Below are positions 48,501-54,500 of a stretch of DNA of 64,000 nucleotides, in pieces. Within the stretch, counting starts at the first letter, position 1. Each line of letters starts with the position of its first letter. Origin of the DNA: Escherichia coli (GTDB lineage: Bacteria > Pseudomonadota > Gammaproteobacteria > Enterobacterales > Enterobacteriaceae); assembly GCF_003991155.1 (NCBI RefSeq), contig NZ_CP031293.1, one strand, 5' to 3'. Position numbers: made by a program.

Positions 48501-51500
48501 CCGCCTTTCCCCGCCCGCTGACCGTTGAAGAACTGCTGGTGGTCACCTTTACCGAGGCTGCCACGGCAGAATTGCGCGGTCGTATCCGTAGCAATATCCA
48601 CGAGTTGCGCATCGCCTGTCTGCGTGAAACCACCGACAATCCACTGTACAAACGCCTGCTGGAAGAGATCGACGATAAAGCGCAAGCCGCGCAGTGGTTG
48701 TTGTTAGCCGAACGGCAGATGGATGAAGCGGCAGTCTTTACTATTCACGGTTTTTGCCAGCGCATGCTCAACCTGAATGCCTTTGAATCCGGCATGCTGT
48801 TTGAGCAGCAGTTGATTGAAGATGAGTCTCTGCTACGTTACCAGGCCTGCGCCGATTTCTGGCGTCGCCACTGCTACCCGCTGCCGCGTGAAATTGCCCA
48901 GGTCGTCTTTGAAACCTGGAAAGGGCCGCAGGCGTTACTGCGCGATATTAATCGTTATCTGCAAGGCGAAGCGCCGGTTATCAAAGCGCCGCCGCCCGAT
49001 GATGAAACGCTGGCTTCCCGCCACGCGCAAATTGTGGCGCGTATTGATACGGTAAAACAGCAGTGGCGCGACGCGGTGGGTGAACTGGATGCGCTGATCG
49101 AATCTTCTGGTATTGATCGACGCAAGTTTAACCGTAGCAATCAGGCTAAATGGATCGACAAGATCAGCGCCTGGGCAGAAGAAGAGACCAACAGTTATCA
49201 GTTGCCAGAGTCGCTGGAAAAATTCTCTCAGCGTTTCTTAGAAGATCGCACGAAAGCCGGGGGGGAAACCCCGCGACATCCACTGTTTGAGGCGATCGAT
49301 CAACTGCTTGCAGAACCATTGTCGATCCGCGATCTGGTGATCACTCGCGCATTAGCTGAGATCCGCGAAACAGTAGCGCGTGAAAAACGCCGCCGTGGCG
49401 AATTGGGTTTTGATGACATGTTAAGTCGGCTCGATTCCGCGCTGCGTAGCGAAAGCGGCGAGGTGTTGGCAGCGGCGATCCGTACGCGATTCCCGGTGGC
49501 AATGATCGATGAATTTCAGGATACCGACCCCCAGCAGTACCGAATTTTTCGCCGTATCTGGCACCATCAGCCGGAAACCGCATTGTTGCTGATTGGCGAC
49601 CCGAAACAGGCCATATATGCATTTCGGGGTGCGGATATCTTCACTTATATGAAGGCGCGTAGCGAAGTTCACGCCCACTACACCTTAGACACCAACTGGC
49701 GCTCCGCACCAGGAATGGTGAACAGCGTGAATAAGCTTTTCAGTCAGACTGATGACGCGTTCATGTTTCGCGAAATTCCTTTTATTCCAGTGAAATCAGC
49801 CGGGAAAAATCAGGCGTTACGTTTTGTGTTTAAAGGTGAAACGCAGCCTGCGATGAAAATGTGGCTGATGGAAGGCGAAAGCTGCGGCGTTGGCGACTAT
49901 CAAAGTACCATGGCGCAGGTATGTGCTGCGCAAATCCGCGACTGGCTACAAGCCGGACAGCGGGGCGAAGCGTTGCTGATGAACGGCGACGACGCGCGTC
50001 CGGTACGTGCTTCGGACATCAGTGTGCTGGTGCGCAGCCGCCTGGAGGCCGCTCAGGTGCGCGATGCCTTAACGCTGCTGGAAATCCCTTCCGTTTACCT
50101 TTCGAACCGCGACAGTGTTTTTGAAACTCTGGAAGCACAGGAGATGCTTTGGCTGTTGCAGGCGGTGATGACACCCGAACGTGAGAACACCCTGCGCAGT
50201 GCGCTGGCAACGTCAATGATGGGGCTGAATGCGCTGGATATTGAAACGCTGAATAATGACGAACATGCGTGGGATGCGGTAGTCGAAGAGTTCGATGGTT
50301 ATCGGCAAATCTGGCGCAAACGTGGCGTTATGCCGATGCTGCGGGCGCTGATGTCGGCGCGTAACATTGCAGAAAACTTGCTGGCAACAGCAGGCGGTGA
50401 GCGGCGTCTTACCGATATCTTGCATATCAGCGAATTGCTACAAGAAGCCGGCACGCAGCTGGAAAGTGAACATGCGCTGGTACGCTGGTTATCGCAACAT
50501 ATCCTCGAGCCAGACAGTAATGCCTCCAGCCAACAAATGCGTCTCGAAAGTGATAAACATCTCGTGCAGATTGTCACGATCCACAAATCGAAAGGGCTGG
50601 AATATCCATTGGTCTGGCTGCCGTTTATCACCAATTTCCGCGTCCAGGATCAGGCGTTTTATCACGATCGCCACTCGTTTGAGGCTGTTCTGGATCTTAA
50701 TGCTGCGCCAGAAAGCGTCGACCTCGCGGAGGCCGAACGTCTGGCGGAAGATCTGCGTTTGCTTTACGTGGCGCTGACGCGTTCGGTTTGGCATTGCAGT
50801 CTCGGCGTTGCACCGCTGGTGCGCCGTCGTGGCGATAAAAAAGGTGATACCGACGTCCACCAAAGTGCGCTCGGGCGTTTGCTGCAAAAAGGGGAACCGC
50901 AAGATGCGGCAGGGCTTCGCACCTGTATTGAAGCGTTATGCGATGATGATATTGCCTGGCAAACGGCACAAACTGGTGATAACCAGCCCTGGCAGGTTAA
51001 TGATGCATTAACTGCAGAACTGAATGCGAGGACGCTACAACGATTGCCCGGCGATAACTGGCGTGTCACCAGCTACTCCGGTTTGCAGCAGCGTGGTCAC
51101 GGTATCGCTCAGGATCTGATGCCACGGTTGGATGTTGATGCCGCAGGCGTGGTCAGCGTCGTTGAAGAACCGACGTTAACACCGCATCAGTTCCCGCGCG
51201 GTGCGTCACCGGGGACATTCTTGCACAGTTTGTTTGAAGACCTCGATTTTACCCAGCCGGTTGACCCGAACTGGGTACAGGAAAAACTGGAGCTCGGTGG
51301 CTTTGAACCGCAGTGGGAACCGGTGTTGACTGAGTGGATCACGGCTGTCCTCCAGGCACCTCTCAATGAAACGGGTGTTAGCCTGAATCAGCTTTCCGAT
51401 CGCGATAAACAGGTGGAGATGGAGTTTTACCTGCCGATTAGTGAACCGCTTATCGCCAGCCAGCTTGATGCACTAATTCGCCAGTTTGACCCGCTATCCG

Positions 51501-54500
51501 CTGGCTGCCCGCCGCTGGAGTTCATGCAGGTACGCGGCATGTTAAAAGGCTTTATCGACCTGGTATTCCGCCACGAAGGGCGTTATTACCTGCTCGACTA
51601 TAAATCCAACTGGTTGGGTGAAGACAGTTCGGCTTACACCCAACAGGCTATGGCAGCGGCAATGCAGGCGCACCGCTATGATCTGCAATATCAGCTTTAT
51701 ACCCTGGCGCTGCACCGTTATCTGCGCCATCGCATTGCTGATTACGACTATGAGCGCCACTTTGGCGGCGTTATTTATCTGTTCCTGCGTGGTGTTGATA
51801 AAGAACATCCGCAACAGGGGATTTACACAACCCGACCCAATGCCGGGTTGATTGCCCTGATGGATGAGATGTTTGCCGGTATGACCCTGGAGGAGGCGTA
51901 ATGAAATTGCAAAAGCAATTACTGGAAGCTGTGGAGCACAAACAGCTACGCCCGCTGGACGTGCAGTTTGCCCTGACCGTGGCGGGAGATGAACATCCTG
52001 CCGTCACCCTCGCGGCGGCACTGTTAAGTCATGATGCCGGAGAGGGACACGTTTGTTTGCCGCTTTCACGACTGGAAAATAACGAGGCATCGCATCCGCT
52101 GTTGGCGACCTGTGTCAGTGAAATCGGTGAGCTACAAAATTGGGAAGAATGCTTGCTGGCTTCACAAGCGGTCAGCCGGGGAGATGAACCAACGCCGATG
52201 ATCCTCTGTGGCGATCGTCTTTATTTGAATCGCATGTGGTGTAACGAGCGCACAGTGGCACGCTTTTTCAACGAAGTGAATCATGCCATTGAGGTTGATG
52301 AAGCTCTACTGGCGCAAACCCTGGACAAACTTTTTCCAGTAAGCGATGAAATTAACTGGCAAAAAATTGCGGCGGCAGTGGCGCTGACTCGGCGGATCTC
52401 GGTGATTTCCGGCGGCCCTGGCACCGGTAAAACGACCACCGTAGCGAAGTTGCTGGCAGCGTTAATTCAAATGGCCGACGGCGAACGCTGCCGTATCCGT
52501 CTGGCTGCACCAACGGGTAAAGCTGCCGCGCGCTTAACCGAATCTCTCGGCAAGGCTTTGCGACAATTACCGCTGACCGATGAACAAAAGAAACGCATTC
52601 CGGAAGATGCCAGCACTTTGCACCGATTGCTGGGTGCGCAGCCGGGTAGCCAGCGTTTACGTCATCATGCCGGTAACCCGCTGCATCTTGATGTGCTGGT
52701 GGTAGATGAAGCGTCAATGATCGATCTGCCGATGATGTCGAGACTGATAGACGCCTTGCCCGATCATGCGCGAGTGATCTTTCTCGGCGATCGCGATCAA
52801 CTGGCCTCGGTTGAGGCTGGGGCTGTGCTGGGCGATATTTGTGCTTATGCCAATGCCGGCTTTACCGCCGAGCGTGCCGGGCAGTTAAGCCGCCTGACGG
52901 GAACTCACGTTCCGGCAGGAACTGGCACAGACGCGGCATCTTTACGCGACAGTCTCTGCCTGCTGCAAAAAAGCTATCGTTTCGGCAGCGATTCTGGCAT
53001 TGGTCAGTTAGCTGCGGCGATCAACCGTGGTGATAAAACGGCAGTGAAAACCGTTTTTCAGCAGGATTTTACTGATATCGAAAAACGGCTTTTACAGAGC
53101 GGCGAAGATTATATTGCGATGCTTGAGGAAGCTCTTTCGGGTTACGGACGTTATCTGGATCTGCTGCAAGCGCGTGCCGAGCCGGATTTAATCATTCAGG
53201 CGTTCAATGAGTACCAGCTTTTGTGCGCCCTGCGGGAAGGGCCGTTTGGCGTGGCTGGACTGAATGAGCGAATTGAGCAGTTTATGCAACAGAAGCGCAA
53301 AATTCATCGTAATCCGCACTCTCGTTGGTACGAAGGCCGACCGGTGATGATTGCCCGTAATGACAGCGCGCTTGGGTTGTTTAATGGCGATATCGGTATT
53401 GCGCTGGATCGCGGGCAGGGGACGCGCGTCTGGTTTGCGATGCCGGACGGCAATATTAAGTCTGTGCAACCGAGTCGCTTGCCAGAGCACGAAACGACGT
53501 GGGCGATGACGGTACATAAATCGCAGGGATCGGAGTTCGACCATGCGGCGTTGATTTTACCGAGCCAACGCACGCCAGTAGTAACACGAGAGCTGGTTTA
53601 CACTGCGGTGACCCGCGCGCGTCGCCGTCTGTCGCTGTATGCCGATGAGCGCATTTTAAGTGCGGCAATTGCCACGCGCACCGAGCGGCGCAGCGGTCTG
53701 GCGGCGTTGTTTAGTTCACGGGGATAAACGTAATTGCCGGATGCGACGCACGAGTGTTACGCATGTCGCATCCGGCGATTTTCATCGCTTACCCTAAATC
53801 CGCCATCAAAACTTTGGATTTACGCTGGTAGTTGTACAACTGCTTTTTGCTCTCGGGCAGTAAATCAATATCCACTGGGGTAAATCCACGTTCCTGGAAC
53901 CAGTGAATACTGCGCGTGGTCAGCACAAACAATTTGCTTAAGCCGCTCTGCTTCGCCTGAGCGGCAATGCGTTCCAGCAGAACCTCGCCCCGTGATGAGC
54001 TGCGGTAATCCGGGTGAACTGCCACACAGGCCATTTCCCCAATCTTCTCTTCCGGGAACGGATAGAGCGCGGCGCAGGCAATAGTCGTGTTATCGCGCTG
54101 AATAATGGTGAATTTGTCGATTTCCATCTCCAGCTGCTCGCGAGAACGGCGTACCAGAATACCTTGCTGCTCCAGTGGGCGAATCAACTCCAGAATGCCG
54201 CCAATATCGTTGATTGTTGCGCGACGAATTTGCTCGGCGCTTTCCATCACAATCTGCGTACCGATACCGTCACGTGAGAACAACTCTTGCAACAGCGCGC
54301 CATCTTCCTGATAACTGATTAAATGACAGCGACGCACGCCGCTGCGGCAGGCTTTCACTGCGCCACGCAAAAAGCGCACCGTACCGGAGTTGTAATCGCC
54401 TTTCTCTTCCTGGGCTTCTACCCGCGCTTGCGCTTCGTTAGGGAAAAGTTCGGAGACAATATCACCGTCGTCATTAGTGACGCCCTGGGAAGAGCAAAAA

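Follow-up and report, generated by a model that had tools for sequence, protein, structure and literature searches.

Chi octamers inside recB and recD of Escherichia coli: probably ordinary Chi sites that come with the coding of conserved helicase strands

An exact search of a 64-kb stretch of the Escherichia coli chromosome (the whole of the DNA analysed, hereafter "the window") found the Chi octamer GCTGGTGG seven times on the + strand and never on the − strand, with one copy lying in recB and another in recD. Most likely, all seven are ordinary E. coli Chi sites, and the presence of two of them in recB and recD is a side effect of the way the proteins are encoded rather than a self-referential device. 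The octamers in these two genes arise from conserved Leu-Val-Val stretches written in the commonest codons, and they are held in place because of the protein constraint on the helicase-strand peptides that they encode. A first-pass annotation of this DNA had placed the octamer on the + strand at 48535-48542 (recB) and 52695-52702 (recD), with which our search agrees; its five sites, including those at 2702, 27938, and 40589, were all correct, but two further copies in lplT (30820 and 31162) had been left out. The Chi copies and the three recBCD genes of the window are as follows.

2702-2709, + strand: Chi in yqeB, on the sense strand, frame CA[G CTG GTG G]TG
27938-27945, + strand: Chi between genes (galR/omr-aas), the sole intergenic copy in the window
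30820-30827, + strand: first of two Chi in lplT, frame AC[G CTG GTG G]GT
31162-31169, + strand: second of two Chi in lplT, frame TC[G CTG GTG G]GC
40589-40596, + strand: Chi in ppdA, frame TG[G CTG GTG G]TT
41934-45302, + strand: recC, an intact ORF without any Chi
48359-51901, + strand: recB, encoding a UvrD-type SF1 helicase plus a PD-(D/E)XK nuclease (annotation and Pfam)
48535-48542, + strand: Chi in recB, codons 59-62, CT[G CTG GTG G]TC, read as L-L-V-V
51901-53727, + strand: recD, encoding an SF1 helicase (annotation and Pfam)
52695-52702, + strand: Chi in recD, codons 265-268, GT[G CTG GTG G]TA, read as V-L-V-V

Genes were placed by mapping the annotation of the near-identical record NZ_CP029747.1 onto the window and checking it by translation. 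The window has roughly 1.07 kb at about 62117 that this record lacks, which affects the transferred mltA coordinates, and the codon-preserving null model described below counted this 1.1 kb as coding, with a negligible effect on the expected counts. The intergenic Chi precedes the first OmrA/B sRNA gene (27976-28057) by about 31 nt. The recC, recB, and recD ORFs are all intact in the window, and the RecB and RecD domains are as expected.

All six genic Chi share a single frame, xxG-CTG-GTG-Gxx, which encodes Leu-Val with the codons used most for each of these two residues, followed by a residue with a G-initial codon. In RecB, the corresponding peptide is LLVVTFT within ELLVVTFTEAAT, a hydrophobic strand before TFT in the region of SF1 helicase motif Ia, and in RecD it is VLVVDEAS (residues 265-272), a hydrophobic strand before DEAS that constitutes Walker B, or helicase motif II, with Walker A (GGPGTGKT) at residues 171-178. 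These are the same β-strands as those of Walker B/SF1 motif II (hhhhDE) and motif Ia, VLVV being followed by DEAS in RecD and LLVV by TFT in RecB, and they lie within the AAA_19/AAA_30 domains of RecD and the UvrD-helicase domain of RecB. Walker B and motif Ia are, however, protein motifs, whereas the Chi octamer is merely one of the many possible spellings of such strands. Compared with the published description of the 1008 K-12 Chi sites, the copies described here show the same exact octamer, CTG in frame within ORFs, a leading-strand location, and a host with intact recC, recB, and recD, and we see no difference in kind, only a lower local density.

A published analysis of K-12 (a preprint) gives 217 Chi per Mbp, or one per 4.6 kb and 1008 sites in all, 99% of them inside ORFs and mostly with CTG in frame, and it accounts for nearly all of the Chi frequency and skew by codon usage together with ORF orientation. 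At that density the window would hold 13.9 Chi, so that the seven found (7 per 64 kb) amount to about half of the K-12 mean (Poisson P(X≤7) = 0.034). Any over-representation of Chi in the window depends on the yardstick: it holds against dinucleotide shuffles (mean 1.97 Chi, with seven reached in 1 of 100 shuffles), it is largely gone when synonymous codons are permuted within genes (3.6 expected vs. 6 observed in coding sequence, P = 0.15), and it is reversed against the K-12 density, so that we make no claim of an excess for this window. The possibility that chance alone accounts for the number and orientation of the Chi of the window, which would then be uninformative, draws on this codon-preserving total and on the Chi-poor character of the window relative to K-12. 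We nevertheless regard pure coincidence as very improbable, given the excess over the dinucleotide shuffles, a + strand count that stands above the codon null when taken alone (2.57 expected vs. 6 observed, P = 0.034), the 7:0 split between strands (two-sided binomial P = 0.016), and the conservation of Chi across strains and species.

BLAST identifies the window as a piece of E. coli chromosome that is near-identical to strain 2016C-3878, and of 5426 complete genomes of the species, 5425 contain its recB-recD stretch. In this respect, the earlier description of the segment as native E. coli DNA stands, but Chi is weak evidence for it, because the window holds only about half of the K-12 density and other genera are denser in Chi, with the densities in Klebsiella, Pseudomonas, and Xanthomonas exceeding that of E. 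coli according to the literature. The exact sequence, the gene identities, and the host all bear out the judgement that these are expected E. coli Chi of low novelty.

The GC skew of the + strand is positive throughout the window, which identifies it as the leading strand, and this location is common to all seven Chi, a point that the first-pass annotation had not mentioned. In K-12, the orthologues are found at 2.95 Mb on the − strand, which is the leading strand of the counter-clockwise replichore, with oriC and the terminus at their established positions. All seven Chi are thus in the orientation that is active for RecBCD heading toward oriC. Replication bias and gene orientation are inseparable here as causes of the strand skew, since all six genic Chi (6/6) lie in + strand genes, and under the codon-preserving null the 17 kb of − strand genes should contain no more than about 0.6 Chi on their sense strand.

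Given what is established about RecBCD, the enzyme would enter at a double-strand end located toward the terminus (at higher window coordinates), such as that of a collapsed fork, and then degrade and unwind the DNA toward oriC. RecBCD would approach GCTGGTGG on the 3'-ended (+) strand and read it starting at the 3' side, nick the DNA a few nucleotides 3' of Chi, and load RecA. The exact search found no Chi from 52703 to 64000 in the window, and therefore the recD Chi would be the first met by RecBCD entering anywhere in those 11.3 kb, followed by the recB Chi 4.2 kb further on. Both should behave as any other Chi does, halting RecBCD degradation toward oriC.

The two sites differ in their 3' flanks. 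According to Taylor et al. 2016, A or G at nucleotides 4-7 3' of Chi favours high hotspot activity. The flank of the recD Chi is TAGATGAAGC, whose nucleotides 4-7 are ATGA (3 purines, the favoured type) and are fixed because they belong to the codons for V-D-E, while the flank of the recB Chi is TCACCTTTAC, with CCTT at the same nucleotides (0 purines, the disfavoured type). The other five Chi of the window have 1-2 purines there. Judged by these flanks, the recD Chi should be more active than the recB Chi, and the latter should be weak. The 3' flank modulates Chi activity and does not define membership in Chi.

Within the species, both sites are close to fixation: the recB Chi is intact in 5420 (4560 + 860) of 5426 complete E. 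coli genomes, the recD Chi in at least 5348 of 5426, and both are present in 9/9 sampled strains, K-12 among them. Outside the species, the recB Chi occurs only among close relatives of E. coli. Most genera have Ile as the residue before it, which makes the octamer impossible, and just five of the nine capable relatives (5/9) carry it, so that deep conservation of the recB Chi is ruled out.

The first-pass annotation had called the presence of Chi in recB and recD a self-referential detail, and one may ask whether these copies regulate or protect the recBCD locus, for example by sparing the enzyme's own genes. The near-fixation of both Chi in E. coli, the wide conservation of the recD copy, and the lack of any other Chi ahead of it for 11.3 kb on the terminus side would all suit such a function. 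However, recC, which encodes the RecBCD subunit recognising Chi (literature), has none, and neither has ptrA; the 11.8 kb spanning recC to recD contain two Chi, a density that does not exceed the K-12 average of one per 4.6 kb; the recB Chi, with its disfavoured flank, is missing from most genera; and the helicase-motif peptides fully explain both positions. We found no evidence in support of a self-referential function, which we consider extremely improbable. We also know of no mechanism linking Chi to the expression of its host gene.

The recD site has a much wider distribution, and it is here that selection on the DNA word itself comes into consideration. Among 120 loci from the matches listed, all for this one gene, the octamer occupies the homologous recD site in 39 of 69 capable gammaproteobacterial species vs. 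7.3 expected from the codon usage of each species. Its recurrence spans several gammaproteobacterial orders with three synonymous positions kept, its window ranks first in conservation among 194 frame-matched 8-mer windows of the recD alignment, and the excess remains after thinning to below 60% protein identity (8/18 vs. 1.03 expected). Independent codon choice alone does not predict this excess, which therefore indicates a force acting either on the octamer or on the CTG-GTG dicodon. The recurrence hints at selection on the octamer, short of proof. We accordingly entertain, as a tentative proposal that we rate as rather unlikely, that the Walker B Chi of recD is of old origin and that selection for the DNA word itself has preserved it in Enterobacterales, Aeromonadales, some Vibrionaceae, and Amphritea.

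A related and equally doubtful possibility is that selection acts on the octamer itself because Chi is favoured genome-wide in lineages whose RecBCD reads GCTGGTGG, so that the recD copy matters as Chi and not via recD; the invariant Leu-Val-Val peptide would then be a place where Chi, once made, cannot vanish by amino-acid change. Besides the 39 carriers among 69 capable species, this possibility gains from an observed/expected ratio of 4.8 at the recD Chi site vs. 2.5-2.9 where other peptides of these loci could encode Chi, and from an excess of the commonest codons that covers exactly the three octamer codons (z = 4.3, 5.4, and 7.4), with none at codons 263 and 268. The carrier clades are also those whose recD loci show enrichment and strand skew of GCTGGTGG away from this site, the strand ratio being 25:4 in Enterobacteriaceae, 17:1 in Vibrionaceae, and 23:0 in Aeromonadales; Shewanella has 0 of 6. 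Moreover, the three recD positions co-vary, the preceding codon being G-ending in 40/44 sequences with CTG-GTG vs. 7/20 without it. However, the species are non-independent and vary in GC3, which alone can link the three positions; by z-score, the recD window merely heads a continuous distribution (13.3 vs. 13.1 and 12.9); and the expectation was built on codon usage alone, for one gene in the 120 listed loci. Counted by family, the recD window is no outlier: it reached 8/12 families, whereas windows whose codons are less free to vary reached 9-12, and family counts were for this reason rejected as a substitute for phylogenetic independence. Finally, the published analysis argues that codon usage suffices for the Chi of E. 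coli.

In a genome-wide statistical study, Buton and Bobay 2021 (PMC8022716) reported GCTGGTGG among their candidate Chi motifs, chiefly for Enterobacteriaceae, along with candidates in Aeromonas and non-polarised ones in Vibrio. The octamer at the recD site occurs in the same groups, although we followed a single homologous codon position across species, and the copies in Vibrionaceae are strongly strand-skewed here (17:1, in loci around recD only), in contrast to the non-polarised Vibrio candidates of that study. A literature search for Chi in connection with Walker B or synonymous constraint found nothing relevant, which is no proof of novelty.

As it stands, the result matters very little, the window being a typical piece of E. 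coli core chromosome with Chi oriented as in the textbook. What the recB and recD copies do provide is two concrete cases of why Chi sits where it does, namely conserved helicase strands in which Leu-Val is spelled with the codons most often used. Of wider use is the method: when a single invariant peptide that can encode Chi is traced through many species, the contribution of codon usage can be told apart from selection on the octamer. This bears on the open argument over whether Chi is truly over-represented, a preprint arguing that its abundance is only a consequence of codon usage. If the recD octamer is indeed selected, invariant Leu-Val peptides of core genes would offer a direct comparative test of selection vs. 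codon usage as the source of Chi abundance.

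An exact search of the 64-kb window found GCTGGTGG, the Chi octamer recognised by RecBCD, seven times on the + strand (2702, 27938, 30820, 31162, 40589, 48535 and 52695), and found no reverse complement of GCTGGTGG on that strand. The first-pass annotation had listed five of these copies, the focal ones at 48535 and 52695 together with 2702, 27938 and 40589, all at the correct coordinates, and had missed those at 30820 and 31162. One falls in the galR/omr-aas spacer; the other six are genic, in yqeB, lplT (two copies), ppdA, recB and recD. The gene map is the annotation of NZ_CP029747.1 carried over to the window and verified by translation, and around the last two sites it reads:

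41934-45302, recC
45478-48366, ptrA
48359-51901, recB
51901-53727, recD
53789-55120, - strand, argA

RecB has UvrD-type helicase and PD-(D/E)XK nuclease domains, and RecD has RecD_N and AAA_19/AAA_30 domains (Pfam). All six genic octamers share the frame xxG CTG GTG Gxx, encoding Leu-Val and then Val or Gly, which agrees with the published K-12 picture, where ORFs hold 99% of Chi, CTG, the most frequent codon, is in frame in most of them, and codon usage and ORF orientation explain nearly all of the frequency and skew of Chi. Forty peptide sites in the window could encode Chi in this frame, and six of them spell it. The RecB octamer covers L59-V62 of ELLVVTFTEAAT, about 30 residues past the Walker A motif AGTGKT, a stretch that we take to be the motif Ia region of UvrD-like SF1 helicases, and the RecD octamer covers V265-V268, the hydrophobic strand before the Asp-Glu of Walker B, about 90 residues past GGPGTGKT.

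Two OmrA/B sRNA genes in tandem follow the only intergenic Chi, at 27938, with about 31 nt between this octamer and the first of them:

27976-28057, OmrA/B sRNA gene (Rfam, 86 bits)
28173-28260, OmrA/B sRNA gene (Rfam, 97 bits)

A TTGACC hexamer immediately precedes this octamer, which is therefore probably inside the promoter spacer of the first sRNA.

Whether Chi is above chance in the window varies with the null chosen. Over-representation in the window holds against dinucleotide-preserving shuffles (mean 1.97 Chi, with the observed seven reached in 1 of 100), and is not clear in total when synonymous codons are permuted within each gene, keeping proteins and codon usage (6 Chi observed in coding sequence vs 3.6 expected, P=0.15; 6 vs 2.57 on the + strand, P=0.034). 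It is reversed against the published K-12 total of 1008 Chi, or 217 per Mbp, a density that would give the window 13.9 Chi and makes seven low (P=0.034). Chi-free stretches cover 25 kb (2710-27937) and the last 11.3 kb of the window. The 7:0 strand split (two-sided binomial P = 0.016) is compatible with the bias that places about 75% of Chi on the leading strand. The + strand is the leading strand, given that its GC skew is positive in 15 of 16 4-kb bins; the K-12 orthologues are on the - strand at 2.95 Mb, which, from the positions of oriC and dif, we take to be the leading strand of the counter-clockwise replichore. Since all six genic Chi are in + strand genes, which hold about 70% of the coding bases, replication bias and gene-orientation bias are inseparable in this window.

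Window positions 48000-53800 are matched in 5425 of 5426 complete E. coli genomes, with 100% identity in strain 2016C-3878 (NZ_CP029747.1); one match to the recB-recD region is to a record classed as plasmid, not chromosome. Only 128 of the 5425 reach at least 99% identity over recB-recD, most being at 97-98%, and the window thus comes from a relatively uncommon E. coli lineage. From 28000 to 64000 it differs from the reverse complement of NZ_CP029747.1 by two SNPs and, near 62117, by an additional 1.07 kb or so. It is the near-universal match of recB-recD that bears out the earlier suggestion of native E. coli DNA; Chi itself is not diagnostic, because its densities are higher in other genera than in E. 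coli (published analysis).

Both octamers are at the same positions in all nine sampled genomes, chosen across the identity range and including K-12 MG1655 and an O157:H7 strain. With 40-nt megablast queries centred on Chi, whose 28-nt seed necessarily spans the octamer, 5420 of 5426 genomes have an intact recB site (4560 with the allele of the window and 860 with a GTC-to-GTG change right after Chi), and at least 5348 of 5426 an intact recD site. The hospital isolate E. coli Z135-5 (NZ_CP161803.1), in which recB is annotated as a pseudogene without its C-terminus (locus 359-3692), may be a natural recB-defective strain; compared with the other strains its locus is short by about 190 bp, and it has a reverse-oriented Chi at about 2831, close to where the annotation ends the truncated recB.

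As far as sequence can tell, the recB and recD sites are E. coli Chi in every testable defining feature, namely sequence, orientation and cognate enzyme, and the initial reading of them as expected and of low novelty is supported. RecBCD would enter at a double-strand end and read Chi on the 3'-ended strand, reaching the octamer from its 3' side, so that + strand Chi should be active for enzymes entering on its right and travelling left toward oriC, which would be the geometry of a collapsed fork. After a break between 52703 and the window end, the recD site would be met first, the recB site 4.16 kb on, and that of ppdA 7.9 kb further. According to Taylor et al. 2016, A, and purines generally, at 3' nucleotides 4-7 raise cutting and hotspot activity several-fold, while both are reduced by C at 4-7 and by T at 5-7. 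By these rules the recD flank TAGATGAAGC, with ATGA at 4-7 and largely fixed by the Val-Asp-Glu codons, is predicted to be of the favourable type, and the recB flank TCACCTTTAC, with CCTT at 4-7, of the unfavourable type.

The octamers had also been called self-referential, and if this is taken as a function that Chi serves in recB and recD, we found no support for it: recC and ptrA hold no Chi by exact search, Chi is no denser than usual around recBCD, the recB site has little phylogenetic depth besides its poor flank, and the positions of both sites follow from helicase-motif peptides. The residue before the recB-site Leu is Ile in most genera, making Chi impossible there, and only five of nine relatives with a peptide able to encode Chi have it.

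Other features of the window were observed in passing. The approximately 1.07 kb at 62117-63190, absent from the otherwise near-identical NZ_CP029747.1, includes an ORF of IS30-type transposase architecture, situated between a phosphoglycerate-dehydrogenase-like gene and three tandem tRNA-Met genes:

62176-63177, + strand, ORF of 333 aa with HTH_38 and rve integrase core
63243-63539, - strand, three tandem tRNA-Met genes

The segment 56800-62100, from amiC to the tRNA-Met cluster, is low in GC (41-43% vs about 52%), contains no Chi by exact search, and has genes for a PRD-domain regulator, a PTS EIIC, a MalY/PatB-type enzyme, a KpsF/GutQ-type isomerase and a phosphoglycerate dehydrogenase; it looks like an acquired sugar-utilisation island adjoining tRNA genes. 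At 16895-18514, tRNA-Gly (CCC) is only about 300 bp from yqeG, and since in K-12 the space between the two is occupied by the ETT2 type III secretion remnant (yqeH...ygeQ), the strain of the window appears to be without the ETT2 island.

The recD site was followed across species by scanning a species-level genome collection once with a codon-degenerate DEASMxDLPM pattern, the Chi codons being outside it, which gave at least 120 RecD loci. Among the matches listed, 39 of 69 capable loci have the exact octamer at the homologous site vs 7.3 expected from the codon usage of each ORF, an expectation that includes neither dicodon bias nor between-species GC3 and is set against species that are not independent. 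Carriers among the loci listed include E. albertii, Citrobacter, Enterobacter, Cedecea, Kluyvera, Erwinia, Yersinia, Serratia plymuthica, Edwardsiella ictaluri, Photorhabdus (3), Aeromonas (5), Tolumonas, Vibrio (2), Photobacterium (1) and Amphritea (2); in Shewanella the motif II site spells Chi in none of six loci listed. The surroundings of recD in Shewanellaceae (16 listed loci, 166 kb) have the opposite skew of GCTGGTGG, 3 recD-sense vs 15 antisense, and either a Chi of another sequence or genes oriented differently with respect to replication could account for it.

Controls support a real excess at the recD site. The observed/expected ratio there is 4.8, and it is 2.5-2.9, a lesser enrichment, at the other peptides in the listed RecD loci that could encode Chi. 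In a 105-sequence codon alignment, the commonest codon is in excess at codons 265-267 (z = 4.3, 5.4 and 7.4) and not at codons 263 and 268 (z = -0.2). Of 194 frame-matched 8-mer windows in the codon alignment of the listed loci, the one with the recD Chi comes first, with a fraction of 62%, Met-free windows being at 31% or less except the overlapping GGTGGTGG window (45%), and it stays at the top by fraction after thinning to <80%, <70% and <60% protein identity, the last leaving 8 of 18 with Chi vs 1.03 expected. In addition, the carrier clades are those whose loci also show enrichment and skew of GCTGGTGG outside the recD site, and the three synonymous positions of the octamer co-vary. By z-score this 8-mer window stands first in a continuous distribution (13.3, with 13.1 and 12.9 next), and with family-level counting it is not an outlier. 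The pattern is suggestive of the octamer, or the CTG-GTG dicodon, being under selection where the peptide is immovable, and the excess is no evidence for a function that depends on the site being in recD. How deeply the recD site is conserved makes it a modest starting point for testing selection on Chi by genome-wide comparison.
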